This document shows, one piece after another, positions 9,071-32,915 of a stretch of DNA of 64,000 nt. The DNA is taken from the IMG/VR virus record IMGVR_UViG_3300008267_000055; one strand, written 5' to 3'. Source of the DNA: an uncultured virus (IMG/VR IMGVR_UViG_3300008267_000055) (taxonomy: Duplodnaviria; Heunggongvirae; Uroviricota; Caudoviricetes). Positions within the stretch are counted from its first letter, which is position 1, and every line of letters starts with the position of its first letter. The notes beneath the pieces were generated by a model. That model saw only the letters and a list, made by a program, of their open reading frames with translations, was not told the origin of the DNA and made no database searches. Made by a program: the position numbers and the translations under genes.

Positions 9071-10116
9071 TTATCTCCGACGTTCACCTCGGGAACCATA
9101 AGCAGAATGGTGGCGCCGTCATGGGCGGCGTCAACGCGCGGTTCATGCAGACGCTTCAGGTTCTGAAGCGGGTGCTTGATGACCATCCGCGCGAAGCCGT
9201 GGTGATCGCCGGGGATTTGTTCGATAAGTCGTCGCCTCCGCCCGCGCAGGTTGGTCAGGTAGCTGCCCTCCTACGCGGGCGTTCTACGCCCACGTACATC
9301 ATGATGGGCAACCACGATCACAACTCCAGCTTGGAGTACGACTTCGCCTTTAGTCCGCTCTGCGCCAACCCTTTGGTCGAGCTCGTGACTGAGGCGACGT
9401 ACATCAACGTGGAGAACCTGCGGGTGCTTCTGTGCCCGTACCCGGCTCACCTGCCGGACCAAGAGATCAACCGCGCAGACGCTGCGATCGCTCACGCGGG
9501 AATTTCAGATGGTAAAACGCCTGCGTACCTGCTTTCTGAAAAGACGCTCGACATCCACAAGCTGAACAACTGGCAGACGAAGCAGGCCGTGCCCTTCGTG
9601 TTCTCCGGTGACTGGCACACTCGGGTCTGCTGGATCGACGGCAAGCACGTTACTGAAGCTACCGTGTCGTCCAGGGTCACGGGTAACCGGACCATCCAGA
9701 TCGGAGCGCTTGCGCCCACTGGGTTCGATAATCAGGGCTTTGGGTACGGCAGCGTGTGGCTCTTCAAGAAGGACGCGCAGGGGCTCAAGGCTACCCTCAA
9801 GGTCGTGCCTGGGCCGCGCTTCCTTCGCACCGAGAGCCGTGGTGTGGCTGACGAGTTCATCGCGCAATGCGAGCTCAGCGGCTGCGAGCCTTTTGTAAAG
9901 TTCGACGGTGAGTACGGTGAGGCTGCTCCTTGCAGCAACTTTATTCAGAATCGTGCTAAGGTCACGAGCTCGAAAGTCACTGAAGCGGCTGTTCAGCTGC
10001 GAAGTGATCATCTTATTGATAAGGTCGTGTACGAGCAGGTTACCGCCAAGGTCCCTGCTGAGCTCCAGAAGGAAGTCATGGAACGGGTCCTTGGCTACCT
10101 CAAGGGGACTGTCTGA
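9064..10116 (+). CDS. Mre11/SbcD-like metallophosphoesterase nuclease
   Basis: SDVHLG, AGDLFD, GNHD, AHAG and SGDWH motifs; start placed at ATG 9064 overlapping the recA stop. Confidence 0.88.
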   Translation: MLIISDVHLGNHKQNGGAVMGGVNARFMQTLQVLKRVLDDHPREAVVIAGDLFDKSSPPPAQVGQVAALLRGRSTPTYIMMGNHDHNSSLEYDFAFSPLCANPLVELVTEATYINVENLRVLLCPYPAHLPDQEINRADAAIAHAGISDGKTPAYLLSEKTLDIHKLNNWQTKQAVPFVFSGDWHTRVCWIDGKHVTEATVSSRVTGNRTIQIGALAPTGFDNQGFGYGSVWLFKKDAQGLKATLKVVPGPRFLRTESRGVADEFIAQCELSGCEPFVKFDGEYGEAAPCSNFIQNRAKVTSSKVTEAAVQLRSDHLIDKVVYEQVTAKVPAELQKEVMERVLGYLKGTV

Positions 10117-10119
10117 GAG

Positions 10120-10410
10120 GTGTCTATGGATGATGCGAAGGCAAAGGTGATCGGTGAGGTCTCCAACGCGGTTTTGGCGTCTATGCGCGAGTATCTCTTC
10201 AGCGCTGGTGGCGAGGAAGAGAGCTTCGACCCCACGCTCATCCCGACCGGGATCGTTCACGGGCTCATGGTCATGCTCGCGACTGGAGCTTCTAACTTTG
10301 AGGCTTTCGAGTCGCTGCTGAAGGCCATGCGCGGGATGCTTTCGATGGAGCGCGAGGACGCGCGCCACTTCTTCACCCAGATCAACTCGGTTAAGGGGCC
10401 GCCCGCATGA
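10120..10410 (+). CDS. Hypothetical protein
   Basis: 96-aa ORF filling the operon gap, GAGG RBS, ATGA coupling to the next gene. Confidence 0.7.
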   Translation: MSMDDAKAKVIGEVSNAVLASMREYLFSAGGEEESFDPTLIPTGIVHGLMVMLATGASNFEAFESLLKAMRGMLSMEREDARHFFTQINSVKGPPA

Positions 10411-10922
10411 AGTACCTCGCCATCGATCTCGCCAAGGTCGGAACGACTGGCCTCGCCGCGTTCGACGGCGAGAAGCTTCTCTGGTCCGGTATCGTGAAGC
10501 AGGGGAAGAAAGGCCCGAACTTCAAGTGCACCTACTCCTCGCAAGGGGACGTCGAGTTCGACAACAGCAGCGCCCCCTCGTTCTGGTGCTTCTTGGGTCA
10601 GAACTTCCCGACCTTCGTCTACGAGGGTCTCTACCTCGGCAAGTCCGCCAAGACCGCTATGGTCTTGGCTGAGATGCGTGGGATGGTGAAGGGGTGGGTG
10701 ACCCACCTCTCCGTCAACCACCGCATCCTCGAGATCTCCGAGTGGCGCGAGGCGATCTGCAAGCACGTTGGCATCGCCAACTGGCCCCGTGACCGCGAGG
10801 AGGGGAAGAAGCTCAGCCTCCGCATCGCGGAGCAGATTCACGGCTTCGCCCCTTCGTGTGACGACGAGGCCGACGCGCTTCTGGTCGGCACTGCTTATCG
10901 CCTGGTGGGTGGTCTCCTGTGA
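10407..10922 (+). CDS. RuvC-like Holliday junction resolvase
   Basis: LAIDLA..TTGLA, YE, LAEMRG and DDEADALL acidic catalytic pattern. Confidence 0.82.
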   Translation: MKYLAIDLAKVGTTGLAAFDGEKLLWSGIVKQGKKGPNFKCTYSSQGDVEFDNSSAPSFWCFLGQNFPTFVYEGLYLGKSAKTAMVLAEMRGMVKGWVTHLSVNHRILEISEWREAICKHVGIANWPRDREEGKKLSLRIAEQIHGFAPSCDDEADALLVGTAYRLVGGLL

Positions 10923-12322
10923 TTAGAGTAAAGCCCTCTGAGATCTTGGTCGACGATGAGATCGCTGACTTCATTGCCAGCGCTGTCTGCAGCTACAAGA
11001 TGAAGGTGCCGACCGAGCGGGGGCGCTTTAAAGACGTCACCATGTCTGTTCGGAGTGGCCCCCGCATCCCGATTGGGATGCTGGACGCCATTCTCGAACA
11101 GGCTGGTTCGTACGACCTCGACGTTCTGGACGAGCGGGACTGGGATCCTATCGACCCAGACCTCATCTCCGGCTCGTACGGGGAAATAAATCTCTACCCT
11201 GACCAGCTGATGGCTATCCGGAAGCTGGTGCAGAAGCCCGTTGGGGTCATCAAAGCCTCTACTGGGTCGGGCAAGTCGATCCTCGCTAACGCCCTCGTCC
11301 TTAATCGAGACGTCCGGTGGATGGTTATCGTCCACCGCGAGAACCTGCTCGAAGACCTGAAGAAGACCTACCTCCGCATGGGAGGCAGGGACCCAGGCAC
11401 GATCAAGGCAGGCGTCTTTAATCCCAAGCGGGTCACGTTCGTCATGCAGACGACGCTTCGCTCGCACCTGCACGAAGACGACTACCGAGAGTTCTTGGAG
11501 AGCGTCGAAGGTATCGTCTGTGACGAGTGCCACTCGTCGGGCGGAGACGGCTACCGCCGCTGCTTGGAGGCTGCCACCAACGCCGTCTACCGCTATGGCC
11601 TCTCAGCCACCCCGTACAGCCGCTCTGACGGCTCTGGAAAGGTGGTTGAGGCGCTGCTCGGGCAGATGCTGTGCGAGGTCTCTACGGAGTCCCTGATGGA
11701 GCTGGAGCGCGTTGCTCGCTTCAAGGTGTACGCCGTCAAGTTCTACCACCCCGAGACCTCGAAGCGGACGGCCTTTTCGTACGCGCACCTTTACGACAAG
11801 GCTATTGGGGCCAACCCGCAGCGCGACCTTTTGCTGATCGACTGCGCCAGGGTGGCCGAGAAGCCTGCGATCCTCTTCTGCAAGACCATGGACCACGCGC
11901 TGTCGATGGCCCAGAAGCTGCGGAAGTTTGCTGGTTTCCACGTCAAAGAAGTCACCGGCAAGTCCAACGACTCGATGCGCGAGCAGGTCCAGAAAGACCT
12001 GAACTTGGGAAAGATCGATATTCTGGTAGCGACCAAAGTATTTTACGAAGGCGCTAACATGCCGTACACGGCCTCGGTCATTGATGCCGGCGGCGGGAAG
12101 TCCCATATCGAGACGATCCAGAAGGCTGGTCGTGGGGCTCGTCGCCCAGAAGGAAAAGAGTCCTGCGAGATCTGGACGATCTACGACGAGGGCTGGGAGA
12201 CTTTCACCAAGCACTCGCGCGCCCGGATCGACCACCTCAGGAAAGAAGGGCACGCCGTAAATATCTGCACGCTGAAGGACGGCGTGCTGGATATCGAGGC
12301 GACCCTTAATCCGAAAACGTGA
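10919..12322 (+). CDS. Superfamily 2 (UvsW/XPB-like) DNA helicase
   Basis: ASTGSGKS, DECH, GLSATP, ILVAT..FYEG, IQKAGRGAR. Confidence 0.92.
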   Translation: MIRVKPSEILVDDEIADFIASAVCSYKMKVPTERGRFKDVTMSVRSGPRIPIGMLDAILEQAGSYDLDVLDERDWDPIDPDLISGSYGEINLYPDQLMAIRKLVQKPVGVIKASTGSGKSILANALVLNRDVRWMVIVHRENLLEDLKKTYLRMGGRDPGTIKAGVFNPKRVTFVMQTTLRSHLHEDDYREFLESVEGIVCDECHSSGGDGYRRCLEAATNAVYRYGLSATPYSRSDGSGKVVEALLGQMLCEVSTESLMELERVARFKVYAVKFYHPETSKRTAFSYAHLYDKAIGANPQRDLLLIDCARVAEKPAILFCKTMDHALSMAQKLRKFAGFHVKEVTGKSNDSMREQVQKDLNLGKIDILVATKVFYEGANMPYTASVIDAGGGKSHIETIQKAGRGARRPEGKESCEIWTIYDEGWETFTKHSRARIDHLRKEGHAVNICTLKDGVLDIEATLNPKT

Positions 12323-12938
12323 GGCCTGGGCGGCGCTCGGGTATTTTTCCTTCTAGCCCGAGATAATCCGCCCAGCGCCGTACCGTCCGTGGTGAGACGT
12401 CGTAATCAGCCGCCACCACCTCTGCTGGCTCGCCGGTCAAAAATCGGCGGGCCATTTCTTTTCGCTGGTCCCAAGTCGTCTTCGACGCTGCCGTCGTATT
12501 GGCGATCGAGAGGTCCAGCATGTTGTCTTCGTGCGTCCCGATATAAAGGTGCTCGGGGCGGACGCAGGCCGGGGTGTCGCAGGTGTGGCAGGCGAAGCCC
12601 TCGAAGTCCTCAACGCCCAGCTTGAGGCGGAGGGCAACGCGGTGGGCTAGGGCGAGCTTTTCACCGTCGCGAATTACTCCGTAGCCCGCCTCATTTTTCG
12701 CACCTGCCCAGAGCCAGCAGGTCTCGGTCTTGGTGATGAGATTTTCCCAGCGTTCGCCGAGCGGGCTGGTAAAGCAGTCAAAGGAGCAGAACTCGCGGCC
12801 AGTAAGCCCGAGCTTTGTCCCTACCATTTCTTTACCGCATCTAGCGCAGGTCTTAATAAATTTAGTACGCTTACGTTTGTCCTTAGGCTTGAACGCTGCG
12901 GACCACCTAGGGAGCTTCTTTTCTTTGATTCGCTTCAT
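12306..12938 (-). CDS. Free-standing HNH homing-type endonuclease with N-terminal zinc finger and C-terminal HTH
   Basis: CWLWAGA..GYG, AHRVA, CHTCDTPACVRPEHL..GTHEDN; CARC..FCSFDC; VAADYDVSPRTVRRW; AGGAG RBS before ATG 12938. Confidence 0.9.
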   Translation of the reverse strand: MKRIKEKKLPRWSAAFKPKDKRKRTKFIKTCARCGKEMVGTKLGLTGREFCSFDCFTSPLGERWENLITKTETCWLWAGAKNEAGYGVIRDGEKLALAHRVALRLKLGVEDFEGFACHTCDTPACVRPEHLYIGTHEDNMLDLSIANTTAASKTTWDQRKEMARRFLTGEPAEVVAADYDVSPRTVRRWADYLGLEGKIPERRPGLTFSD

Positions 12939-13004
12939 GATCGCTCCTACCGCAACCACTTTACGGACAAAAACTTTGAACCTTAAGTAGGCCTAGGAGG
13001 TTTT

Positions 13005-14168: not shown

Positions 14169-14533
14169 TTTACCACCCCACCGTGGTGCTCAACACCCAT
14201 CTTGTCGGCCATGGCGCGGAGGTAACCCTTGATCTCGCTCATGTCCTTGGTGTTGCCACGCATCTCGACCTCAAGGCCGGCCACGCGTGTTTCCAAAAGC
14301 TGGACCTTGTCCGGAATGACCGAAACGATCTTGAGGATCTGGTCACCCTGCGCACCCAAGTGCTCCTCGATCTTCTCGACCCTACCTTCGAGGGCGGAGA
14401 CTCGGGGCTCAAGCAGATTAGCGCCGCGAATTTCGCCGGCCACAAAAGTCCCGAAGCCGGCTGTGGCGATGACCGCTGAGAAGGCGATCTTTCCCCACGT
14501 CATCCAGCTCTTGAGCTTGTTGATCAGGTCCAT
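14165..14533 (-). CDS. Single-TM coiled-coil protein (lysis cluster)
   Basis: N-terminal TM followed by heptad repeats RVSALEGRVEKIE / LLETRVAGLE. Confidence 0.65.
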   Translation of the reverse strand: MDLINKLKSWMTWGKIAFSAVIATAGFGTFVAGEIRGANLLEPRVSALEGRVEKIEEHLGAQGDQILKIVSVIPDKVQLLETRVAGLEVEMRGNTKDMSEIKGYLRAMADKMGVEHHGGVVK

Positions 14534-15264
14534 CAGGGCACCTCGGTTTGCTTTTGCATGGAGCTCGCGGACTTGACGGTCAGGTCGTAGGCCTGGACCG
14601 GGGCGAGGCCCGCGTGACGGAGATACGTGTAGTGATCAACCACACGACCGTCGGCATGGGCCCACTGTGCATGGCATTTAATGCCGGGTCCATCATGATT
14701 GGACAACGTGGTCCAGTTATAGACCTTCTTGCCCGTGAGCGTTTTTGTGACGCCACTCCAGCTTGCTTGCTCAATATTTCTATAGCGAGGAAGCAGAGAA
14801 TTAAGAAGCTGCCAGCTCGACTCAAGCTGCTGAGGTGTAGGCATGATGTACCTGCGATCTGCATTCAAGAATTTAGAATCAGTCGCGCTCCACGCCCGGT
14901 CGACGAAGATCCCGGAGATGATAACGGGGGCAAATTCTCCCGAGTAGAGCTTCAGATTGGTGGTCTGATTAACTCGGTGACCGTAGTACCGATTAATAAG
15001 CTCAATACCGATCGAGCGAATATTGTGCTTGGTACCGGGCGGATTCCCACCGGCGTGCGCACAAGCGCGGTGTTCCTCGGCGTGCTGGGTAACGGAGCCG
15101 TCGCGGTCGACGCAGTAATGAACGCTGAGGCCCTTGGCCGAGAGCGCCTTCAGCGTGCCGTCAAGCGTGGCGACCGCCGACTCGTGGAAAATGATACGGT
15201 CGATGACCTGTGTACGCTCGCGCGGTGACCCTGCGAACCAGACTTGATGCTTAACGGGCTTCAT
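14533..15264 (-). CDS. Endolysin, N-acetylmuramoyl-L-alanine amidase (Amidase_2-type)
   Basis: IIFHES, SVHYCVDRDG, AHAG..N..SIGIELIN, late CH...D zinc ligands; GGAGG RBS. Confidence 0.9.
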   Translation of the reverse strand: MKPVKHQVWFAGSPRERTQVIDRIIFHESAVATLDGTLKALSAKGLSVHYCVDRDGSVTQHAEEHRACAHAGGNPPGTKHNIRSIGIELINRYYGHRVNQTTNLKLYSGEFAPVIISGIFVDRAWSATDSKFLNADRRYIMPTPQQLESSWQLLNSLLPRYRNIEQASWSGVTKTLTGKKVYNWTTLSNHDGPGIKCHAQWAHADGRVVDHYTYLRHAGLAPVQAYDLTVKSASSMQKQTEVP

Positions 15265-15346: not shown

Positions 15347-15826
15347 TTACGCGCGGCGGACGCGCGGCGCCGTGGTTGGATTGCGGAGCTCGAAGGTACC
15401 CGAGCTGACGACCTGGTTGGCCGACAGGTCGAAGTAGTAGAGCAGCGGGTTGGCCGAGTCAGCGCCGCCCTTGTCCACGAAGAGGATCGCGTGGCCCGTG
15501 GTGAACGTGGCATCGCCGCCGTTGCCCGGGCCCCAAATGGCGTTGGTGGTCAGCGCGAAGTTGAGGTCGCAACCCTCGAGGCCAGCCTCGCTGTTGTACG
15601 AGAGGGTGACCGGGATGGTCTTGCGGGCGTAGTTGATGACGCCGCCAACGCCGTCGACAAGCTCACCCGAGAGGTTCGAAACGAACTCGTCGGTGACGTC
15701 GAAGGGGTACGTGGCGTAGTCGCCGAGCAGAAGAAGCTTGACGGTGTCAGAGCCAGCGCCGCCCGACAGGTCGAGCTCGCCAGAGAGGACCTTCTCAAAA
15801 ACCTTGGGGTAGAACGAAGAGGCCAT
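15347..15826 (-). CDS. Putative virion structural protein (paralog of 18060..18473)
   Basis: YP....l.G.l....tvKl.Ll...Y......E...Y pattern seen in phage minor tail proteins; AGGAG RBS. Confidence 0.65.
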   Translation of the reverse strand: MASSFYPKVFEKVLSGELDLSGGAGSDTVKLLLLGDYATYPFDVTDEFVSNLSGELVDGVGGVINYARKTIPVTLSYNSEAGLEGCDLNFALTTNAIWGPGNGGDATFTTGHAILFVDKGGADSANPLLYYFDLSANQVVSSGTFELRNPTTAPRVRRA

Positions 15827-15944: not shown

Positions 15945-17945
15945 TTAGGCAGCACCAAGTTCGAGTACCGAGTTGGTGTTAAAGGTCAGCCCACCACCGT
16001 AGCGGGCTGTTCCCGTGCCGGTGCCCGAGGCACCCGCGCGCAGCGTACCGTTAACGGTGACGTTGCCTGTGCCCGTGACTCGGCGCGGTGTCGCCACCGA
16101 GGTGACCAGTTCAAGCACGGCGCCCGTGGCGACGGAGATGGTGCCCGTGTTCGTGTTGTCGTGGCTCATCGCCTCAAGACGGAGGCTGCCCTGCTCCACC
16201 GTGGTGGGGCCTGTGTGACTCAGGACCCCGGACAGGGCCCAGTACCCGGTGCCATTCTTGACCAACCCCAGCGTCGCGCTATTCGTGCCAACTTCAGTAA
16301 CCGGGCCGGAAATGGTGTTGGCGTTGGTGTTCGTGCCAGCAAGCGTGAGGGTCATCCGAGCTGACGCAGTCGCCCCGCTGTTAGTGCGCTGAACGCCCCC
16401 AGTCAGGACGATGGCGTCAGTCCCAGACGACGCAAGAGTGTACACCCCCGCCGTCAAGACCGACGTTTGAGCGTTGTTCTCTGAGTCAATGATGACGTCT
16501 GTGTTTCTCGTCTCGCCTGCGCCGGCATAAGTGATTGAAGCCGTCAGAGAAAAGCCGGTGGCAAATGCAGCGCTGCCCAGCCAAAACTGCTGAGGCAAGT
16601 GATGAGTGACGAGCTTGCCGATCGGGTTTGACGAGTTTGAAAAGGCGATCGCCTGAAGCGAGCCGGCGAACCCTTGAATACTCCCGGGCCCTGACTCCGG
16701 AAAGGTGACTCCTGACCCTGCAAAGTTGCCCTGAATGACGATACCGCCAACCCCGGTAGGGCTGACTGGGAAGTTAAAGTCAGTTGACGTATCCCGGTAA
16801 AAGAACCGTGAGGTCGCGCTGGCAACGTTGAGCGCTGTCGGCTCATATCGGGCGTTCGCGGCAACCGCCAAGAGTCCAGAATTGATTGTGCAAGGCCCAG
16901 AAAGGCCTGATGAGTTACCAGTAAGGAACAGGCCGCGACTCTTTCCAAGAGTCGCCGAGGTCGTAATCCCACCAGTGCCGGACACGGTCCCAGACATCGA
17001 GACGGAGTTGCTTTGGATAGTTAGTGACCTGGCGTCACCAAGTGCAACCGAGCCGTTAAAAAACTGGCTGCCGCCCCCGCCAAAAAGCGTCACGTTTGTG
17101 TTGAAAGTCGTGCTTCCAGTAATCGTGAGCGCAGAACCTGTGTTGGTAAAAGTGAGCGGGCTTGCGCTTGTAAAGTCGACGGGGCCGTTGAAGGTGAACG
17201 ACCCTGAAGCAAGCGTGATCGTAGTGTTGCCTTTAAAGCTACACCCACCGCTAAAGGTGACCCCGGTGCTGCTCGCGTTGCTGATCGTCAACGTTCCGGA
17301 AACAGGCTCAAACGTGCATGGCTGAGTAAAGTTGACCGTCTTGAGGGAGGCAGCCGAGTTCTGAATCGTCGTGCTTCGCCTGAACCTAACCGGCGCGGAG
17401 ACGCTAGTTGTTGAGGTAGCGGTATCAAATATCAGGTTGGCCGTGGGTGCTATTGTCCCGTGGCCCATCTCAAGCGTGCCGCCGAAACCCTGAAACATGC
17501 CAAACGGACCATCTCGCACCACGATCAAAGCCAGCTGAGAGGCCACGCTCGGCGCATTGAGCACGACCCAGCCCAAGCCTATCTTGGTCATGGTGCGCCC
17601 TGCTCCGTTAAGGCGCGGGCTCCATCTGTGAGGTGTAGCCGAGACGACTGCGCCGGGCAGGTCAAACGTAAAGTCGTTTGCGACTACGATTGATTCACTG
17701 CCAGCTCCGATGATCCAAGGATGGCTAGACGTCGGGAAGTCGTCGATGCGAAGGTACACCGGCATCGTAGAGACGTCATTGCCGATCCCGGTGATTGAGC
17801 CTTGTGAGGTAATCTCTCGGCGGATGTACCCAAAGTCGCCAGTGCCAGGGGGCGAGAACCCGCCGACCCCACCGTCAACCTGAGACCAGTTAGCCGTTGA
17901 AGTCCAAACGCCACCGCTTGCGAGTCTCCAATACCGGGTTGCCAT
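15945..17945 (-). CDS. Beta-helical adhesin-like protein with autotransporter-associated (PATR) repeats, no secretion signal or beta-barrel
   Basis: LVKNGTGYWALSGVLSHTGPTTVEQGSLRL, MTKIGLGWVVLN; Gly/Thr/Ser-rich; N-terminal RYW...W...NW motif. Confidence 0.8.
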   Translation of the reverse strand: MATRYWRLASGGVWTSTANWSQVDGGVGGFSPPGTGDFGYIRREITSQGSITGIGNDVSTMPVYLRIDDFPTSSHPWIIGAGSESIVVANDFTFDLPGAVVSATPHRWSPRLNGAGRTMTKIGLGWVVLNAPSVASQLALIVVRDGPFGMFQGFGGTLEMGHGTIAPTANLIFDTATSTTSVSAPVRFRRSTTIQNSAASLKTVNFTQPCTFEPVSGTLTISNASSTGVTFSGGCSFKGNTTITLASGSFTFNGPVDFTSASPLTFTNTGSALTITGSTTFNTNVTLFGGGGSQFFNGSVALGDARSLTIQSNSVSMSGTVSGTGGITTSATLGKSRGLFLTGNSSGLSGPCTINSGLLAVAANARYEPTALNVASATSRFFYRDTSTDFNFPVSPTGVGGIVIQGNFAGSGVTFPESGPGSIQGFAGSLQAIAFSNSSNPIGKLVTHHLPQQFWLGSAAFATGFSLTASITYAGAGETRNTDVIIDSENNAQTSVLTAGVYTLASSGTDAIVLTGGVQRTNSGATASARMTLTLAGTNTNANTISGPVTEVGTNSATLGLVKNGTGYWALSGVLSHTGPTTVEQGSLRLEAMSHDNTNTGTISVATGAVLELVTSVATPRRVTGTGNVTVNGTLRAGASGTGTGTARYGGGLTFNTNSVLELGAA

Positions 17946-18059
17946 GGGGCCTCCTGCTACGAATTTGTTACGCGGGGTCGATGGATGGTGTGATCTTAGC
18001 CAAGATTAGGGTGCATGATCAGCGTAGAACCCGTCGATGTGTAGCAGTTGTGCTCAGTG

Positions 18060-18473
18060 TTACGCTGGGGTCGCAGAAGGCGCGGTGCTCGGCACGTTGA
18101 TCTGGTAGTCCTGCGCCACGGGGCTTTGCGTCGTAATAAACGCTAGGTGCATCATCAGTTTGCCAGACACCGTGTCGTAGATAACGGCGTTGTTGAACGA
18201 GAAGGTAGCACTAGTCCACAAAACTGCAGACGGCGTGAAGTAGGAGGCGGTGCTATTGGCAGTGGGCGTGATTGTAGTCGCCTCGCCGCCTGCCGTGTAG
18301 CCACCGCTTGCTGCAATCTGAAAGCCGCTCACGTCAGACCACGCGGTGTGCGACGCCGTGTAGCTGCCGCTGCTGTTGAGCAGGGCAATCTTGAACGAAC
18401 TAGTCGTGCTGTTGAGGTTGCCCAAGAACATCTGCTGCGCGGCAGAGGGGTACCACTTGGCCGTGATTGACAT
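18060..18473 (-). CDS. Putative virion structural protein (paralog of 15347..15826)
   Basis: WYPS..QMFLGNLN....FKIALL..GGYTAGG pattern. Confidence 0.65.
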   Translation of the reverse strand: MSITAKWYPSAAQQMFLGNLNSTTSSFKIALLNSSGSYTASHTAWSDVSGFQIAASGGYTAGGEATTITPTANSTASYFTPSAVLWTSATFSFNNAVIYDTVSGKLMMHLAFITTQSPVAQDYQINVPSTAPSATPA

Positions 18474-18497
18474 GTTGGCTCCTCGCGGTCTTCAGCG

Positions 18498-18848
18498 TCA
18501 GTTGAGAGGAGGGAATGGGTGCTGCGGTACCCCCATTGGGGAGGGGCTCTCAGGAGTCAGCGAAAGTTCAGGCGGGTTTTCGTGGTCGACGGCACCCGCG
18601 AACTCCGGCAGCGTCTTGAGGTAGGCGTAGCTCGCGGGGAACACGTCGTGAGCCACCGTACCCAAGATCGTGCCGTGCTCCTCGGTCCAGATGGGCTCCG
18701 CCCCCGCCATGCGGTCGTCAAAGCTGGAGTAGGTGATGACGTAGACGTAGGCGTCGCTCTTGTCGCACCTCGTCTGGAGGATGCGACTGTACGCCTCGGG
18801 GTAGTTGACGCCGTTCAGAGTAAAATTGCGAACAAGGGCCATGGTCAA
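18498..18848 (-). CDS. Fibre-associated small protein (possible tail-fibre assembly chaperone)
   Basis: C-terminal YAYLKTLPEFAGAVD motif typical of small proteins next to phage fibres; start may be 18842. Confidence 0.6.
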   Translation of the reverse strand: MTMALVRNFTLNGVNYPEAYSRILQTRCDKSDAYVYVITYSSFDDRMAGAEPIWTEEHGTILGTVAHDVFPASYAYLKTLPEFAGAVDHENPPELSLTPESPSPMGVPQHPFPPLN

Positions 18849-18853
18849 TCCTT

Positions 18854-21424
18854 TCAGGCAGCAGCGGCGCCACCGATGTAGAGAGAAGAGCCCGCGTTGA
18901 AAGTAAGATCGCCACCGTAGCGCATCTGGCCCTTCTGCGTGGTGTTGTTGCTCGTCTTGACTGTACCAGAGACGACCACGTTGCCCTCGCCCAGAACCTT
19001 GCCGCTAGAGCCGCCGGTGGCTGGGTAGGTGCTCGTCATACACTCAACCGTGCCATTGCTGGCCACGGTGATAGCACTGCTCAGGGACGCGTTGCTGTTC
19101 GTAGCCTCAACTCGGAGAGTGCCGTTGTTGACAGAGGTAGTGCCTGAATAACTCAAGGCACCCTGCAGAACCCACTTGCCTGCGCCGTCCTTGACAAGGG
19201 TGGTAGTCCCAGACTGGTCAAGCAGAGCAGACTCAATCGTGTTTGGGTTCGTGTTAGAGCCCTGCAGCGTGATCGTTTTAGTGCCTGTCCCCAAAAGCGC
19301 AGTAGCAAACGTAACATCGCCCGTGCCTGAGGCATCAAGCTTGGGACTACTGCCGTTGAGGCGCACACTGCGAGTGGTGCGTGCAGTGACGCCCGTGTAC
19401 TTGAGTGTACCCGAGACCTCTACGATGGGAGCCAGCGCGCCAGTGCCCCAAGTGGCATTCGATCCAGAGTTGGCGACACTACCAATCGTCAGCGTGCCCG
19501 CATTGACGGTGACCAACCCTGTGAAGGTGTTGGCATCTTCTGTGAGCTCAAGCTCACCATCACCGTTCTTGGTGATGCCAAAGGCACCCGAAATAACGCC
19601 GGCACCCTGCGGAGACAGGGTCAGCTTGCTACCGGCGTCAACGGTGAAGGCCGCAGTGCCTGCAAGCGTGATACCCAGCGTCTGCAAGATGTTATTGCCA
19701 ACCGACACGATGGGGTTGGTGGCGTGGATAGTGAAGTTGGTACCAGACTTGTTGTAGGTACCCCCAGCCGTCAACAAGATCTGGCCCGTACCAGATGTCG
19801 TCACGCCCGAGGAAGTCGCCGCACCCAACCCGGTGACGTGTTGCACCTCAAGCACGCCAGTGCTGACGGTAATGGACCCCGACAGGTTGTTGGTGCCAGC
19901 GAAGACAAGCGGCCCCGTCAGCGTCTTAGAGATCGACAGAATACCCTGATCCTGTTCCTGTACGATATTACCCTGAATAGTGGTCGTGGCAGGGTTCGTG
20001 CCGACGAATGACAAGGTGCTAGCGGCAGAAGAAGTACCCGCGGCACCATATCTGCGGATGGACGTTGCGGCCACGAACGTAGTCGGGGCTGTGCCGGTGT
20101 TCTGTACCTCAAAAGTGTGTCCTGTCGTGCTCTGTGACGAGTACAAGTACAGCGAGCCTTGCATCGTAGTAGGGCTACCGGGTGCCCAGCTCATGCGGCT
20201 GATGCGCGTCGCAGATGTAGTCGTGTAGTAGAAAGACCCCAAGACATCAGCTGCCGCCGGCAAATTGGAACCAAAGCTGAAAACTGGCGATGGTATGGTA
20301 TTATCTACAATGACGGCTACTGTGCCTGGGAACTGTGCGATATTCGACGATGCTCCCATGGAGACCGTGACGTTCATGTTGTTCTGCAAGCCCGCATAGG
20401 AGCCCGTCACAGTCAGGGGTCTGTTCTCCGTAAAAGCGGTTGCGCCATAGTATACAAGCGTACCCGAGGTGTTACCTGTGAAGTTGAATCCCGTAACATT
20501 AGGCAGCAAGTTGGTGCTGCCGGAGTTGTAAACTCCTGTGTAAAGGCCACCCTGCTCGATGTCAACTGTGCCGCTAAGGGTGCTGGACCTGCGGACAACA
20601 AAAGACCCGATACCCGACTTGATAAATCCGTTGGTGCCTGTTAGTCCGCCATTCGACTCAGTATAGCTCGCAAAAGCTAGGGTGCGCTTAGTTGCTCCAA
20701 GAATAATAACAGACTGAATACCGAAGCTCCCACCGCTTGAACCGAGATCGACTCGGTTGCTGCTGATAGTCAAATCTTGCGTCAAGTCTCCCAAAAACTG
20801 AGCATCAGTCGTGCTGGGAAAGATGTAGACGCCTTCCCCTGCCACAGTAATGTTGGCGTTGGCGAGTACTGCGGCGCCGCTTGGGATCAAAATCGACAAG
20901 CCAGTGCGCTCACCAAGAATCAGGCGGCCTGTGAATGAGTTCAACGTGGCCGTTGTTCTCAGTGCAATGTATGCTTTGAACGCATTTTCAGTTGGGTGAG
21001 CATTCTCAATGGTCCAGTTGCTAGTGCCTGACACGCGATTCGCCTGAAAACCCAGAGCCCCGGGCCCTGCAGCATCTGAGTTGTACAGGATGAACGTGCG
21101 GGGCGACCCGCCTAGGGCAAACTGCCCATTAGAGCCTACGTTGAACAACCGATTGTTGGTCGTAGTTTGCTCAAACGCAGTGGCCCCGTTGAAGGTGATG
21201 GCTGTACCTGCGGTAGTCGGGTTCCACGTGATGGCGCCCGCAGCACCTTCAATCAGCAGTCCACTAATGCTCAGAGCACCGGTCAGCGTGGCGTTCAACG
21301 AGTTGGAAACAAATTTTGCGATGTCACCCGTGCCGGGTGCGGTCGCAGGCTGTACACCGTCTACCAACCACGCGGTGTTGGTATTGAGCGTGGCAATCGT
21401 GGGAGCTTTGACGTAAATCGCCAT
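18854..21424 (-). CDS. Beta-helical adhesin-like protein with at least 4 PATR repeats
   Basis: FIKSGIGSF..SGTVDIEQGGL, ISKTLTGPL..SGSITVSTGVL, ITKNGDGELEL..NTFTGLVTVNAGTL, LVKDGAGKWVL..YSGTTSVNNGTL. Confidence 0.85.
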   Translation of the reverse strand: MAIYVKAPTIATLNTNTAWLVDGVQPATAPGTGDIAKFVSNSLNATLTGALSISGLLIEGAAGAITWNPTTAGTAITFNGATAFEQTTTNNRLFNVGSNGQFALGGSPRTFILYNSDAAGPGALGFQANRVSGTSNWTIENAHPTENAFKAYIALRTTATLNSFTGRLILGERTGLSILIPSGAAVLANANITVAGEGVYIFPSTTDAQFLGDLTQDLTISSNRVDLGSSGGSFGIQSVIILGATKRTLAFASYTESNGGLTGTNGFIKSGIGSFVVRRSSTLSGTVDIEQGGLYTGVYNSGSTNLLPNVTGFNFTGNTSGTLVYYGATAFTENRPLTVTGSYAGLQNNMNVTVSMGASSNIAQFPGTVAVIVDNTIPSPVFSFGSNLPAAADVLGSFYYTTTSATRISRMSWAPGSPTTMQGSLYLYSSQSTTGHTFEVQNTGTAPTTFVAATSIRRYGAAGTSSAASTLSFVGTNPATTTIQGNIVQEQDQGILSISKTLTGPLVFAGTNNLSGSITVSTGVLEVQHVTGLGAATSSGVTTSGTGQILLTAGGTYNKSGTNFTIHATNPIVSVGNNILQTLGITLAGTAAFTVDAGSKLTLSPQGAGVISGAFGITKNGDGELELTEDANTFTGLVTVNAGTLTIGSVANSGSNATWGTGALAPIVEVSGTLKYTGVTARTTRSVRLNGSSPKLDASGTGDVTFATALLGTGTKTITLQGSNTNPNTIESALLDQSGTTTLVKDGAGKWVLQGALSYSGTTSVNNGTLRVEATNSNASLSSAITVASNGTVECMTSTYPATGGSSGKVLGEGNVVVSGTVKTSNNTTQKGQMRYGGDLTFNAGSSLYIGGAAAA

Positions 21425-21434
21425 GGTGCGCCTC

Positions 21435-24400
21435 TCAGGTCAGGGTGACAGACACGATGGTCGGAGCCGTGCCCGATGAAGTGATGGATGTGGTGTACAG
21501 TCCGGCTTCGCTGATGACCGTCAGGTTAGCAAGCCCCGTGACCGCGCCCGTCACCTCAAACAGCTCGTAGGTACCATCGGTCGCGTAGAGCGAGGCGTCC
21601 AGATACAGCGTAGTCGCACCGCTAAAGGTCAGGTCGCCTTCGACAAACTGCTTGCCGATGGTGAGCGTGGTCGGGACAGGCGAGCCACCCGGCGCTGTGG
21701 GCGGGTAGATGACGCCGGGCGCGCCAGACTTCAAGCGCATGACGACGTGCGACTTGTGCGGCTTGTCCTGGACGACCTCGACGAAACAAAGCGGCAGCTG
21801 CGTCGCGTCGATGATGAGGTTTGACAGCTGCGCCGGGTTCGGGAAGCTGCCGTACTGAAACAGCACGTAGTTGCCGCCGATGGGGTAGATGCCGGGGTCG
21901 AGCACGACCGTGGTCGGACCAGTGATAGCCAGCGCCCCGTCGACGTACTGCGTGCCCTCGTAGCTGTCGCCCGTCAGCGACCACGACCACGACCCGCCAG
22001 CCAGTGTCAGGTCAGGCCCGTTCCAAGAAACTTGGATGGGATGACGCGGAATGGCGTCCTCGCTGGTTCCGCTGCCGTCAACCGCCGTGGGCGTGAAGGC
22101 GAGGCTCACTGCGGCGTTCGTCGCAGTGCCGATTGCGTTCGTCGCAGTGACTGTGACGATCTTGTCCGTGGTAAGAACGGCGATCGCGTCTTCGCTAGTA
22201 CCCAACGCATTCGTAGCCACTAGGGCGTAAGCGATGAGGACAGGCGCGTCGGCCACTGTGCCAAGCGCGTGCACAGCGCTCGGCGTGTGGGCCGAGGCCA
22301 CGGCGGCGTCAGCCACTGTTCCCACCGCATCTGAGGCTGCCGGTGTCACCGAGTCGGTGACGGCGACCAGTACCGCCTCGCTCGTGCCGAGGGCGTTCGT
22401 CGCGCCCGGCGTCACCACCTTGGTGGCGGCGACAATGGCGTCGGCCACCGTGCCAAGGGCGTCGGTGGCCGCAGGTACGTACACCATGACCACCTGTGCC
22501 GCAGCCACAGTACCGAGAGCGTTGTTCGTCGCCGGCGTGACAACGCTGCCAATAGCTACAACCACGTCCTCGCTAGTACCAAGCGCTGCGCTTGTCCCAG
22601 GAGCGACGCTCAGGAAGGTCTCGGGGATGGCGGCAGTTCCAACGGCGTCCGCGACGCCCGGAATAAAGCTGGCGCTCACAGCAACGATAGCGTTCTCGCT
22701 GGTGCCGAGCGCGTCAGACGCAGGCGGAGTAACTGCGCTGCTGACCGCGATAAGCGCAGGCTCGCTGGTGCCAAGCGCGTCACTCGTGCCGGGAGCAACG
22801 CTCGTGTAGACCGCAGGGGTGACCACAGTTCCAACGGCGTCCGATGCATCCGGAGTGGAGCTATCGCTAACAGCGACGAGCGCGTTTGTGCTGGTACCGA
22901 GTGCTGCGAAAGCCGTCGGGGTGAAGCGATCACTGACAATGACGACGACCGCAGTGGCCTCCGTACCCACGGCGTCACTGACACTAGGTACCAAGGCCAC
23001 GCTCGTAGCAGGCACTGCGTCAGCCACGGTGCCGAGAGCGTTCGAGGTGCTCGGGGCAACGCTCAGGGCGACGAGGGCGCTGGCCGAGGTTCCGGCCGCG
23101 TCCTGCGCCGTGGGCTCGACGCTCACCACAACGAAGGCGCTTGCCGACGTACCGTCTGCATCAGAGGAGCTTGGGACAGTGGCTACCGCAACCAGTGCGT
23201 TGGCCGCCGTCCCAACAGCGTCGACCGCGTCGAGGGTCACCACGTCAGAGACATAGACGAGGCGCTGGAGGAGGTGCAGCACAACTTGCGTGTTCGCAGT
23301 GTCGTCCGTCAGGGCTGCGGCGAACAGGTTCGGCACGGCGGACGTGTCGATCGTGACGTACGTGTCGAGGCTGGCTTGGCCGCCAGAGAAAGACCCGTAG
23401 TCGAAGAGGACGTAGCTGCCGGGGGTCGCGAACGCCGTAGCGTTGAGTACGATCCGCGTCGGGCCTACGAAGACCAGCGCCCCCTCAACCGTCTGGGTGA
23501 CGTTGACGAAGGTGCCTTCCTCGCCCGAGGCCCCAACGGCGTCAACGGCGACAGGTGTGAACGCTGTGCTGATGCCAACGCCGGGGGTGGCTTCCGTACC
23601 AAGCGCGTCGGAGACACTCGGAATAAACGAGACCACCGCCACGGACGTCGAAGAGGTCCCGAGGGCATCGGCGACTTCAGGCACGACGAAGTCGGAAACG
23701 TGGACGGTCGGAGTCGAGGACGTTCCGAGGGCGGGCTCACTGGAAGGCGTAACCCAGTCGCCGATGATGACCACCGGGTAGGTCGCGGTACCCTTGGCAT
23801 CCATCGTGCTCGGGGTGTAAATCTTGGAGATCGAGATATTCGCTGCGGCCGAGGTGCCAATAGCGTCAAAGATCTCGGGGGTAACCCTGTCGGAAACGTG
23901 AGCTGTAACCTCTGAGGCCGTTCCGACGGCGTTCGAGGCTTCAGGAGTGAAGCTGTCAGAGACCACCACGAGGGCATCCTCAAACATACCCTCTGCGTCG
24001 GTAGCTCCGGGGGTGACTCGCACCGAGACAGAAACCGTCGTGTCAGAAACGGTGCCGACTGCGTCGGAGGTCTCGGGGGTCGCGTAGTCGGAGATCGAGA
24101 TTACGGCGTCGACAGACGTACCGACGGCTGCGGTAGTCGAGGGCGAGAACGCATCGTCGACCATCGGGATGGCCGGCTCAGAAGTACCGAGTGCGTCAGA
24201 AGCGGAGACCGTAAAGGTCTTCGAGGTGACTGAGGTTGCATCCTCCGACGTACCGATCGCGTCAAAAACGGTGGGCGTGAAGACCTCAGAGATCGAAACC
24301 TGTGCGTCAGAGCTCGTTCCAACGCCGTCGTGGGTGCCGGCCGGCGTGAAGCTATCCGACACGACGACCGAGGTCTCAGAAGCAGTCCCAAGGGCATCCT

Positions 24401-26543
24401 GCACGGCGGGAATAAACGAGATAACTGCGGAAACGCTCGCGCTCGTGCCGATAGCGTCCTCAGTTGTGGGCTCGAAGGTATCCGACACCGTCACGAGAGC
24501 ATCCGCCGAGGTACCGACGGCGGCGAGCGCCTCCGGCACGAAGAACAGACTTACCAGTGCATCAGTCGCCACTCCAAGCGCGTCGGACGTACTCGGACTG
24601 AGCGCGCTTCCAACCAGAGCATCCGTCGACGTGCCGACAGCGTCGGTAATATCGGGCGTAACCACGTCGGAGACGTGAACAGAAGGCGTTGCCGAAGTAC
24701 CGAGCGCCGGGTAGCTCTCGGGGGTTACTGCGTCGCCTATGATGACCGCTGGGTACGAAACGGTGCCTACGGCGTTGGCCGTCGTGACCTGGAACACGTC
24801 AGAGACGTGAACCGCAGGCGTGGCCGCCGTCCCCGAAGCGTCAGCTGCCGTAAGGGTGGGAGCGAGCGCAACGCTAGCATCAGTGCTCGTGCCGATGGCA
24901 TTGACCGCATCGGGCGTTACGGAATCCGAAACGTGTGCGGTTGCTCCGGCTGCCGTGCCAACGGCGTCGGACACCGTGGGCGCGAAGGAAGCCGCCACAA
25001 GGGCGCCCGAGGCCGTGCCGACTGCGTCAGCCGCATCGGGCTCGTAGACGTCAGAGACGTGCACCGTGGGCGAGGTAGAGGTGCCGAGTGCGTCTGTCGT
25101 GCCCGGCACGAGGGCCGAGCCTACCTGAATGTTAGATACCGTACCGACGGCGTCGGAGACCTCTACCGTAACTGCGTCAGAGACGTGAACAGTCGGGCTG
25201 GCAGACGTGCCGGCCGCAGACTCGCTAGAGGGCGTGATCCAATCGCCGATAATAACGACTGGGTAAGACTCTGTTCCTCTAGCGTGGGCCGCCTCAGGTC
25301 GGAAGACGTCTGAGACGTGTACGGTGGCGATGGATTCCGTCCCGAGGGCTGCCGCAGCCAAGGGAGAGTAGGCAACGCTCGGCAGCGTTGTAGCTTCGGT
25401 ACCGACTGCGTCGCTTGCCTGCGGGGAGAGACCAGAGGCCACCAAGGCATCAGCCGAGGTTCCGACGGCCGCTGTGGTCGCAGGGGTGAAGCTGTCAGAG
25501 ACGTGAACCAAGCGCTGCAGCAGGCGCAGGAACACACGCCCCGTGACCGGGTCGTCGGTCAGGGCGGCGACGAAGAAGTCCGGGACGGCGGAGGTGTCGA
25601 TCGTGACGTACGTGTCGAGGTCGCTCTGACCGCCGGGGAACGAGCCTGGTGTGTACCGGAAGAGGTCGTACTCGCCCGGGGTCGCGAAGGCAGCCGCCCC
25701 CAAGACGATGCGGGTAGGCCCTGCAAACAGCAGGGTACCCTCAACCGTCTGGGTGACGTTGATGAAAAGACCTTCCTCGCCCGAAGCCCCCACAGCGGCT
25801 GTAGTGGTGGGCGAAACCGCAAGGGCAATCAGGGGCACGGCCGCCGTACCGGTGGCATCGCTAGTCTCGGGCGAGACTGCGACGATGGCCCTAGCCAAGG
25901 CGGAGGTGCCGATAGCGTCTGCGACGGTAGTGTCGAACGAATCGGAAACGTGAACCGTGGCGTAGGCAACGGTCCCTACGGCGGGCTCGCTAGAGGGCGT
26001 GATCCAATCGCCAATAATAACGATCGGGTAGACCACACTACCCTTGGCGTCTACTGTTGCAGGCACCACGAAGTCTGAGACTGAGATAAAGACGTTCGAA
26101 ACTGTGCCGAGCGCGAAGGCAACGTCAGGCGTGAAGGTGTCAGAAACTACGACCTGAGCCTGAGCAGAAGACCCGATTGCGTCCGAGGCGTCGGGAGTGA
26201 CCACGTCAGAGACGTGAACCGTCAGCTCCGAGGGTGCGCCTACTGCGTCAGAAACCTCAGGAACGCTGACGTCGGAGACGTGTACCGTCGGAGAGGCAGA
26301 CGTGCCGATGGCGGGGGAGGCCTGCGGCGAAAAGGTATCGATGATACTTATGACGGGCGTTACGGAGGTTCCGATTGCCCCAAAGGCCTCAGGGACGAGG
26401 CCGTCATTGACGACGACCATCGGACGACCTACGGACGTACCAATCGCGTCTGCTGCAACAGGCGTAACCGTGGCATTCAGTGGAAGAATGCCGCCCGAAA
26501 AATACCAAAGTTTTCTAGGCCACCGCCATCCGCGCAAAAACAT
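21435..26543 (-). CDS. Giant repetitive fibre/stalk protein (dozens of about 22-26-aa P...DA[VL]GT repeats plus four about 70-90-aa inserted modules)
   Basis: 1702-aa ORF, Ala/Val/Thr/Ser-rich, recurrent TP.ASDAVGT...VHVSD units; GAGGTG RBS. Confidence 0.85.
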   Translation of the reverse strand: MFLRGWRWPRKLWYFSGGILPLNATVTPVAADAIGTSVGRPMVVVNDGLVPEAFGAIGTSVTPVISIIDTFSPQASPAIGTSASPTVHVSDVSVPEVSDAVGAPSELTVHVSDVVTPDASDAIGSSAQAQVVVSDTFTPDVAFALGTVSNVFISVSDFVVPATVDAKGSVVYPIVIIGDWITPSSEPAVGTVAYATVHVSDSFDTTVADAIGTSALARAIVAVSPETSDATGTAAVPLIALAVSPTTTAAVGASGEEGLFINVTQTVEGTLLFAGPTRIVLGAAAFATPGEYDLFRYTPGSFPGGQSDLDTYVTIDTSAVPDFFVAALTDDPVTGRVFLRLLQRLVHVSDSFTPATTAAVGTSADALVASGLSPQASDAVGTEATTLPSVAYSPLAAAALGTESIATVHVSDVFRPEAAHARGTESYPVVIIGDWITPSSESAAGTSASPTVHVSDAVTVEVSDAVGTVSNIQVGSALVPGTTDALGTSTSPTVHVSDVYEPDAADAVGTASGALVAASFAPTVSDAVGTAAGATAHVSDSVTPDAVNAIGTSTDASVALAPTLTAADASGTAATPAVHVSDVFQVTTANAVGTVSYPAVIIGDAVTPESYPALGTSATPSVHVSDVVTPDITDAVGTSTDALVGSALSPSTSDALGVATDALVSLFFVPEALAAVGTSADALVTVSDTFEPTTEDAIGTSASVSAVISFIPAVQDALGTASETSVVVSDSFTPAGTHDGVGTSSDAQVSISEVFTPTVFDAIGTSEDATSVTSKTFTVSASDALGTSEPAIPMVDDAFSPSTTAAVGTSVDAVISISDYATPETSDAVGTVSDTTVSVSVRVTPGATDAEGMFEDALVVVSDSFTPEASNAVGTASEVTAHVSDRVTPEIFDAIGTSAAANISISKIYTPSTMDAKGTATYPVVIIGDWVTPSSEPALGTSSTPTVHVSDFVVPEVADALGTSSTSVAVVSFIPSVSDALGTEATPGVGISTAFTPVAVDAVGASGEEGTFVNVTQTVEGALVFVGPTRIVLNATAFATPGSYVLFDYGSFSGGQASLDTYVTIDTSAVPNLFAAALTDDTANTQVVLHLLQRLVYVSDVVTLDAVDAVGTAANALVAVATVPSSSDADGTSASAFVVVSVEPTAQDAAGTSASALVALSVAPSTSNALGTVADAVPATSVALVPSVSDAVGTEATAVVVIVSDRFTPTAFAALGTSTNALVAVSDSSTPDASDAVGTVVTPAVYTSVAPGTSDALGTSEPALIAVSSAVTPPASDALGTSENAIVAVSASFIPGVADAVGTAAIPETFLSVAPGTSAALGTSEDVVVAIGSVVTPATNNALGTVAAAQVVMVYVPAATDALGTVADAIVAATKVVTPGATNALGTSEAVLVAVTDSVTPAASDAVGTVADAAVASAHTPSAVHALGTVADAPVLIAYALVATNALGTSEDAIAVLTTDKIVTVTATNAIGTATNAAVSLAFTPTAVDGSGTSEDAIPRHPIQVSWNGPDLTLAGGSWSWSLTGDSYEGTQYVDGALAITGPTTVVLDPGIYPIGGNYVLFQYGSFPNPAQLSNLIIDATQLPLCFVEVVQDKPHKSHVVMRLKSGAPGVIYPPTAPGGSPVPTTLTIGKQFVEGDLTFSGATTLYLDASLYATDGTYELFEVTGAVTGLANLTVISEAGLYTTSITSSGTAPTIVSVTLT

Positions 26544-32366: not shown

Positions 32367-32915
32367 TTAGGTAACGGGGCCGCGTTTGGAGTAGACCTCG
32401 ACGTTGAAAAATCCCCGGTAGCGGTTGACCTCGAGAGAGCTCGGGTCGGGCACGGCCCGTATCGCGTCTGGGATTTCCATGACGTAGCCAGCGTAGAGGA
32501 TCTGGATGGTATAAACCCCAAGCGGAACCATAGGCATGGCGAATCTCAGAACCCGCCTGCCGTACATCGGGTTTATCCTGTCGTCTCGGCCTTCCAAGCC
32601 TGAGTGAGCGTTCGGGTACAGGTCTGGAAAATACTGCCCTAGGCAGGATTTTAGCCTGACCTTGTAATCCCCTGGAGCCCATGGGCTTGAGGTGCTGACC
32701 AAGTCAATCAGAGTCCCACCCTGCTGCGAGTACTCCCAAGGGGACGCTTGGCGGGTGATCTTCTCTTCGAGGTCAAAAACAAACTCGCTCCCGATGACGA
32801 CGACGCCCTCGCGAAGAGCAAGAAATCCGTAAGGGTCGCCCGCACCACTGCTGAGCCACCCGTAAGGGTCACCCGCGCCCCCAAAAACGACATCTCCTGC
32901 CCCAGACCACATCAT
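32367..32915 (-). CDS. Ig/IPT-like structural protein
   Basis: SGAGDPYG repeats, GGTLIDL..LRFAMP..PLGVYTIQI Ig-like pattern. Confidence 0.55.
   Translation of the reverse strand: MMWSGAGDVVFGGAGDPYGWLSSGAGDPYGFLALREGVVVIGSEFVFDLEEKITRQASPWEYSQQGGTLIDLVSTSSPWAPGDYKVRLKSCLGQYFPDLYPNAHSGLEGRDDRINPMYGRRVLRFAMPMVPLGVYTIQILYAGYVMEIPDAIRAVPDPSSLEVNRYRGFFNVEVYSKRGPVT

Follow-up and report, generated by a model that had tools for sequence, protein, structure and literature searches.

Predicted docking of a putative PATR beta-helix adhesin by its C-terminal rung on an autochaperone-like module of a tail fibre in an uncultured myovirus

Phages carry several adhesins on adaptors through N-terminal trimeric domains, and the tailspikes of CBA120 (TSP1-4) and G7C (gp63.1/gp66) are reportedly trimers that dock through N-terminal adaptor domains, with several adhesins held on one virion via an adaptor and exchangeable adhesin cassettes that share a conserved attachment part. 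In autotransporters, the autochaperone (AC) or junction region (e.g. the IcsA AC, 3ml3; the BrkA junction) is a small beta-sandwich-like unit that closes a right-handed beta-helix C-terminally, and, according to the Introduction of PMC5767081, BrkA, Ssp, EspP and Pet can be rescued by supplying such a region in trans. Here we describe a locus in 64 kb of DNA from an uncultured virus (IMG/VR IMGVR_UViG_3300008267_000055; the whole stretch analyzed, hereafter the window, ~58% G+C) in which a long tail-fibre gene with four related modules is followed directly by the gene for the first of two beta-helix proteins of the PATR family. The closest described system in structure and logic is the AC region, and the closest in function is the adaptor-borne multi-tailspike complex of CBA120 and G7C. 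We think it probable, with real room for doubt, that the PATR proteins are adhesins docked by their C-terminal rung on a cap module of the fibre. This arrangement would share with the CBA120 and G7C complexes the exchangeable adhesins but, unlike them, has the conserved part at the C-terminus, a single-chain beta-helix in place of a trimer, and a joint that is predicted to be rung on rung; there is no shared PHROG or Pfam family.

The two PATR proteins are encoded on the minus strand as open reading frames (ORFs) of 856 aa (PATR1; 18854-21424, starting 10 nt past the fibre stop codon) and 666 aa (PATR2; 15945-17945), downstream of the fibre ORF of 1702 aa (21435-26543). An earlier note on this DNA had described them as uncapped adhesins beside a stalk; all three ORFs lie on the minus strand as it described, and the C-terminal strings of both PATR proteins are exactly as it quoted them. 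The Pfam PATR model (PF12951; gathering cut-off 27 bits) matches PATR1 at 56 bits in two stretches and PATR2 at 29.5 bits, and at E<=0.01 it is the only Pfam family in either protein, with neither an autotransporter barrel nor PEP-CTERM (PF07589), in agreement with the note's statement that barrel and sorting tail are lacking. The N-termini (MAIYVKAPTIATLNTNTAW.. and MATRYWRLASGGVW..) have no hydrophobic core as judged by eye. Both proteins end in a rung of the form ..RYGG(D/G)LTF.....L.(I/L)G.AA, which in PATR1 occupies residues 831-852 (KGQMRYGGDLTFNAGSSLYIGG; 18869-18934, minus strand), placed there by conservation and by the complex prediction described below, in which it is the predicted interface; PATR2 ends in ..RYGGGLTFNTNSVLELGAA.

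A search with PATR1 residues 560-856 gave 198 relatives at E<=0.001, and the counts given here cover the 120 of these that are listed. Forty-eight of the 120 (46 by regular expression, with P0008 and P0010 added by eye; 472-891 aa) terminate within a few residues of this rung, which bears out the claim that the PATR proteins stop at a conserved rung. The other 72, many of them cellular-looking, include 30 with PEP-CTERM-like tails and 16 with ends of the ..VFFRL.. type. The nearly invariant columns of the family cluster at PATR1 residues 830-854, and the terminal rung region is the most conserved stretch of the PATR family. We reject truncation of the PATR1 and PATR2 genes, because the 48 rung-ended relatives share this terminus down to its final residues, and it is thus a conserved feature of the family. 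A search for longer proteins with the PATR terminal region found only PATR-repeat matches, in two proteins, which is weak evidence against fibre-PATR fusions.

The fibre protein belongs to no Pfam or PHROG family. Its shaft is built from a unit of 20 or 22 aa (DAxGTS....V.VSD..TP) that occurs at least 54 times; the repeats exist at the protein level only, with no DNA-level repeat reported for the gene by Tandem Repeats Finder. These repeats are broken by modules 1 and 2, and modules 3 and 4 form the C-terminal end. The modules are each ~80 aa long and all four lie on the minus strand, in the regions where the earlier note had seen four related units in the stalk. Modules 1 (25512-25757) and 2 (23262-23501), both placed by profile and alignment, are internal and 74% identical to each other; module 3 (21723-21956), the first half of the terminal pair, and module 4 (21438-21656), the C-terminal end of the fibre and the predicted docking site, are 39% and 36% identical to module 1, respectively. 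A four-module profile run against the 799 six-frame ORFs of the window finds no other site (next best E = 1). Subtype profiles assign modules 1-3 to a first subtype and module 4 to a second. The likeness of the first rung of the modules to the PATR rung, which the earlier note had proposed, is visible in an alignment of both; a rung pattern matches these sites only (5, vs a shuffled mean of 0.26), but this is a circular test, the pattern having been written post hoc.

The N-terminus of the fibre (..RWPRKLWYF) is similar by eye to the way in which shorter module-ended fibres begin (MPTQPRKL(F/Y)..W). Among fibres with this module pair at the end, the total length varies between about 225 and 1702 aa, and the length of the shaft is therefore very variable between conserved ends. 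We note that the second half of module 4 (21438-21560) differs from its counterpart in a related locus, L003 (about 8500-8624), the fibre of the window ending in ..EAGLYTTSITSSGTAPTIVSVTLT and that of L003 in ..EAGLFCGAPFLDGNLVKVTIT; the first rung of module 4 is kept in L003 despite this difference.

In a library of 1.84 billion representative proteins the module profile matches 106 proteins at E<=0.001, and because of these matches we regard the module as a real family and not a chance likeness. Forty-six of them have one module and are no longer than 130 aa, 42 have two modules and a length of 160-210 aa, nine are 211-340 aa and nine are longer; 57 of the 88 small proteins start with MP, typically as MPL(V/I)(Y/F)VQRY. 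The module is found standalone, at fibre ends and fused to other parts. One example is the module pair at the C-terminal end of the fibre-like proteins P0138, P0141 and P0156, another is P0146, with a module pair at its N-terminus together with a Laminin_G_3 domain, and P0201 has one internal module. Proteins of up to about 1170 aa with an N-terminal module pair and a P0146-like architecture are also encoded in L009 (2484-4679), L010 (563-4081) and L012 (5399-8731). No relevant Pfam family was found in the 19 module proteins scanned, no relevant PHROG family, including the tail-fibre assembly chaperones of the Tfa/gp38 type, was found in 15, and a PDB sequence search with the module profile gave no meaningful match.

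Related loci were drawn from viral contigs, metagenome contigs and one genome contig. In all ten with readable downstream sequence (the window, L003, L004, L008, L011, L013, L015, L017, L018 and L019) the next gene after the module-terminated gene is of the PATR family, and the intergenic gap is 10-13 nt in eight of the ten. This next gene is cut by the contig end in L008, L013 and L015, where it was identified by 53-99.6% identity to full-length rung-ended members; in two further loci (L014 and L020) the contig is cut after the module. The loci with this strict order span a G+C of 0.58 to 0.68 and three architectures. In the first (L017-L019), a single-module protein of 89-90 aa is followed after 13 nt by a PATR protein (1492, 997 and 1176 aa, respectively) ending in ..RHTYP.LTFAAN.RIRIGG, and a rescan with ends of this type found no contig beyond these three; the subtype of their single modules is ambiguous. 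In the second, two modules terminate a fibre of 929-1057 aa, and the third is the four-module fibre. We note that the PATR gene of L011 is split over two frames (8502-10145 and 10136-11059), either by a frameshift or by an assembly error.

In one lineage the two parts are joined in a single chain. P0182, P0234 and P0235, which are 72-83% identical over the query region (residues 560-821), consist of PATR repeats, a terminal rung (..HGGNLAFGAGSLLRFS), a 12-aa linker and two modules, and they are the only cases in which modules directly follow the last beta-helix rung in cis. Both modules of P0182 lean to the second subtype, that of module 4 (57 vs 36 bits and 43 vs 35 bits). A scan of viral contigs found none with this fusion.

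The attached end of a phage adhesin is normally its conserved end, and the C-terminus is therefore the candidate for the attached end of the PATR proteins. The likeness between PATR1 and PATR2 is confined to the final ~140 aa (41% identity), and in PATR1 the N-terminal ~450 aa are variable and the C-terminal ~400 aa conserved. Between the window and L003 the fibres are 92% identical over 1686 columns, whereas the first PATR genes are alignable only over the C-terminal ~400 aa, at 50% identity, and L003 has a third PATR gene at the place of a small gene in the window. A conserved N-terminal adaptor domain was not found on the PATR proteins, whose N-terminal halves are variable and match no PHROG or Pfam family. 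The swap of N-terminal halves on near-identical fibres suggests that the proposed C-terminal joint would be what lets host range change by exchange of cassettes.

An AlphaFold2 (AF2) model of modules 3 and 4 (predicted local distance difference test score, pLDDT, 90.8) shows two small beta domains connected through a proline-rich linker. With VIA-align this model gives rows for the IcsA AC (3ml3; Z 3.9, root-mean-square deviation 2.7, 72 residues aligned), VacA 652-811 (Z 4.1), IgA1 protease 915-989 (Z 3.1), Ssp 558-638 (Z 3.0) and pertactin 495-572 (Z 2.7), and six of the 19 top rows are C-terminal ends of beta-helices, five of them of autotransporter passengers and one of a metagenomic beta-helix. 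As modelled, the module weakly resembles the autochaperone ends of autotransporters.

Complex prediction was done for one pair, PATR1 residues 560-856 with modules 3 and 4 (chain 2, in which residue n is fibre residue 1529+n). The interaction prediction score from aligned errors (ipSAE), which is a model confidence and no measurement, was 0.78, 0.79 and 0.74, whereas none of three controls scored above 0.01; at least 95% of contacts recur between the runs, and the pLDDT of the partner is at least 76. In the predicted interface, PATR1 831-852 lies against the first rung of module 4 (TIGKQFVEGDLTFSGATTLYLD; chain 2 residues 99-120, fibre residues 1628-1649, at 21597-21662 on the minus strand), and the pairs with least error are in register (PATR1-chain 2: F842-F111, L840-L109 and L848-L117). 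The homologous rungs of PATR1 and module 4 are predicted to lie on each other as consecutive turns of a single helix would. The predicted complex makes no use of the artificially cut N-terminal end of the PATR1 piece, and module 3 makes few contacts only, though it was offered. Structure prediction of the PATR C-termini with the stalk modules had been suggested in the earlier note, and for PATR1 it selects module 4 and leaves module 3 unused; the core docking idea is supported, at the level of a model, for module 4 only. The proposed docking by beta-helix complementation survives as a predicted continuation of the helix, with the PATR1 rung on module 4, but not as complementation in the strict sense, both partners keeping the rung and the fusion having both copies: because PATR keeps its own copy, the joint would be one of stacking and not of insertion of a missing strand.

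We propose that the two PATR proteins would be receptor-binding beta-helix adhesins of the virion that have no cap or anchor of their own. Their cap would be the ~80-aa autochaperone-like domain encoded separately and directly upstream, which in the window phage would be fused to the distal end of a long tail fibre, with extra copies inside it, and elsewhere would be a small separate protein. The last PATR rung (..RYGG.LTF.....L.IG.AA-COOH) would stack in register on the homologous first rung of at least module 4, and the module would continue and close the helix, tying the C-terminus of the adhesin to the fibre, with the variable N-terminal part pointing away and recognizing the host. In addition, the module may serve as a folding template for the helix in the manner of the autochaperone domains of autotransporters, and by this analogy a templating role seems likely. 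From the gene order, the fusion, the conservation pattern and the predicted fold and interface, we infer that such a complex would form, would be stable in the virion and would bind the host by its N-terminal end.

Several points weigh against this proposal. The evidence is all computational, and the phage is uncultured. The numbers of module and PATR genes differ, being 4:2 in the window, 4:3 in L003 and 2:1 in L004 and L011, with 1:1 in L017-L019. The co-occurrence of the two motifs, put forward in the earlier note as a check, holds in the ten loci in which a PATR gene comes next and breaks down in L009, L010 and L012, in which a large non-PATR protein carries the module pair N-terminally and no PATR gene is present; because of these loci the module is not tied to PATR partners only, and it may be a general junction domain for different adhesins. 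Conversely, the PATR gene of L005 is preceded by 2.3 kb, up to the contig end, that contain no module. Modules 1-3 of the window are of the other subtype from module 4, which is the only predicted socket. The module profile has no match in the PATR ORFs at E<10, the rung likeness being too short for significance alone, so the matching rung claimed for the module starts is seen in the alignment and not by the profile.

The structural evidence has similar weaknesses. Foldseek with the module model gave no match in the PDB at E<=0.001, and all of the fold matches (Z 2.7-4.1) are below the level that the tool calls meaningful. The complex controls were unrelated proteins and not other beta-solenoid ends, and generic end-on solenoid stacking is therefore conceivable; because the input alignments were unpaired ones of our own making, the calibration of the ipSAE mark (reached by 116 of 157 solved complexes vs 2 of 215 mismatched pairs) holds only roughly here. 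The AF2 model of the fusion P0182 has a pLDDT of 65 overall and below 50 at residues 527-642, so that the junction is unreadable. Across the family, most of residues 1-500 are 13-28% identical to PATR1, vs 41-65% after residue 500, but the C-terminal region had served as the query by which the relatives were gathered, which biases this profile. Finally, the earlier note had taken the module for the cap that finishes cellular PATR proteins, and of this a weak likeness remains: a profile of the last 55 residues has no match below a domain E of 0.1 in the 72 cellular PATR relatives, and the module profile matches them over half its length only, its first ~45 positions aligning, mostly internally, with G.Y.LF segments (domain E 1e-5 to 0.04, computed within this small set of 72).

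The position of the modules bears on whether they are anchors at all. In seven of the ten loci they lie at the distal end of fibre-like proteins whose N-terminal start is conserved and whose shafts differ greatly in length, and a chaperone alone has no reason to be placed there. We regard it as quite unlikely that the modules are only folding templates acting in trans, as a split autochaperone that is then released or does not anchor, with the adhesin joining the virion in some other way or acting off it. The PATR N-termini are unlikely virion anchors because this part is variable, and the fusion P0182 retains its modules in the mature chain. The template explanation does draw on the activity in trans of autochaperone regions in autotransporters (PMC5767081), on the 89-90-aa proteins of L017-L019, which have only a ~19-aa leader beyond the module with which to hold the virion, and on the predicted interface, which suits a template as well as an anchor.

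Another explanation is that there is no specific interaction, the modules being structural knots or sugar-binding domains and the PATR proteins separate fibres attached at another place, with a gene order that reflects the usual clustering of fibre genes and an interface of generic solenoid stacking. The strict order in ten of ten loci, with the module gene directly upstream across a G+C of 0.58 to 0.68 and all three architectures, makes this improbable. It fits the loci in which modules are fused to another large protein and no PATR gene is present, as well as the unequal numbers of modules and PATR genes, a rung likeness that is not significant as sequence, the weak fold matches and the absence of a solenoid among the complex controls. 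However, independence is hard to reconcile with the fusion lineage, 48 relatives keep the C-terminus intact down to its very last residue, and the prediction chose the native C-terminal rung over the cut N-terminal end and module 4 over module 3. A read-through or frameshift fusion of the fibre and PATR1 is rejected in view of the 10-nt gap with a fresh ATG and the standalone module genes elsewhere, which speak for separate but coupled genes.

Docking of PATR1 on module 4 is a narrower claim than the branched fibre imagined in the earlier note. That every module is a PATR socket, such that one fibre chain would carry up to four adhesins drawn from two or three exchangeable PATR genes in a branched, cellulosome-like multivalent arrangement, seems unlikely. 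The comparison with cohesin-dockerin scaffolds of cellulosomes is an analogy of repeated docking modules, and that with donor-strand complementation in chaperone-usher pili an analogy of beta structure completed by another chain; neither involves homology.

Separate tail-fibre assembly proteins are encoded downstream of the fibre gene, whereas the module gene is upstream of the PATR gene in all ten loci and has no family in common with the Tfa/gp38 chaperones. The likeness to AC regions is closer: these can act in trans (PMC5767081), the best fold rows of the module model are such ends, and in the fusion P0182 the modules sit right after the last PATR rung, a position that in the window is predicted to be taken in trans. 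The differences are that there is no shared sequence family (no Pfam match) and a fold Z of only 3-4, and that the phage module is on a separate polypeptide, multiplied and carried on a fibre, with a proposed role in anchoring besides capping. Unlike classical (type Va) autotransporters, the phage PATR system has no barrel, no signal peptide (by eye) and no secretion, and unlike the PEP-CTERM-sorted PATR proteins of the Verrucomicrobia type, PATR1 and PATR2 lack PF07589; a ..PEP.. tail is, by contrast, present in 30 of the 120 relatives listed. The C-terminal auto-chaperones of the K1F, phi29 and P22 tailspikes are likewise C-terminal elements that an elongated beta-structured adhesin requires for its folding (PMC3357383). 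The module here is upstream on another structural protein and is kept there, whereas the tailspike elements are trimeric and part of the same chain, and the two have no family in common. A literature search of titles and abstracts found no description of PATR proteins on phage fibres nor of a split autochaperone.

The window contains the tail module of an uncultured phage with a contractile tail (a myovirus). Its structural module is on the minus strand and includes a portal (57584-59074), a tail sheath (48343-50430), a baseplate J-like protein (35733-37088) and several large unnamed proteins, and the fibre and PATR genes have the baseplate genes on one side and the endolysin on the other, a place typical of fibre genes. 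Also on the minus strand, PATR1 is followed by a small gene of 116 aa (18498-18848; phrog_18037), a second small gene of 137 aa lies between the two PATR genes (18060-18473; phrog_644), and PATR2 is followed by a second phrog_644-like gene of 159 aa (15347-15826) and an amidase endolysin (14533-15264). A near-identical viral record (G001, 57 kb) has a CheckV completeness of 36%. DNA and protein searches found no relative among isolated phages, and a single-protein scan of viral contigs gave no match. The G+C of related loci ranges from 0.35 to 0.68. The nearest named cellular PATR relatives are in metagenome-assembled genomes (MAGs) labelled Opitutae and Verrucomicrobiota, labels that do not fix the phage host. 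A scan of bacterial genomes for the module found one contig, which breaks off just behind the beginning of the module and belongs to a MAG labelled Acidimicrobiaceae, whose host label is uncertain, and a scan of bacterial genomes for the PATR family found no match.

Relatives of the phrog_18037 protein (~110 aa, with a conserved ..YP..Y.(Y/W)LKTLP.(F/Y).GA.D motif) adjoin PATR genes in distant loci, being encoded after the PATR gene in L017 (12683-13072) and L018 (11243-11584), where they overlap its end, and before it in L005 (2006-2326); this protein is a possible assembly factor. The phrog_644-like proteins (137-160 aa) are encoded beside adhesin genes in the window, L005 (1499-1981), L009 (1994-2425), L010 (73-504) and L012 (4895-5326), i.e. 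both in PATR loci and in loci with a module pair fused to a large non-PATR protein. In a protein atlas they fall in viral clusters without a named family, the podophage fibre domain Gp80 (0.85) being a weak lead only, and a PDB sequence search with the phrog_644 protein found no meaningful match. Other large tail proteins are encoded on the minus strand at 39948-44111 (1387 aa), 44108-47110 (1000 aa) and 32912-34282 (456 aa); the 1387-aa protein contains a Listeria-Bacteroides repeat (Flg_new) and the 456-aa protein a PKD-like domain, and the phage may carry adhesins beyond the PATR set. A family A DNA polymerase (4308-6965, plus strand) has in its N-terminal part a weak match to the uracil-DNA-glycosylase superfamily, below the Pfam cut-off, and an HNH endonuclease with a helix-turn-helix domain (12306-12959, minus strand) lies between the lysis and replication genes.

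If the proposed docking is correct, the joint would be a new one, in which the C-terminal rung of a single-chain PATR beta-helix fastens it to an autochaperone-like cap encoded by another gene, and it would be the first natural case of a split autochaperone. It would also explain how phages can borrow PATR adhesin modules of the host type without a barrel or a sorting tail. The rung of ~25 aa and the module of ~80 aa would then make up a portable plug-and-socket pair, used standalone, at fibre ends, inside fibres and fused.

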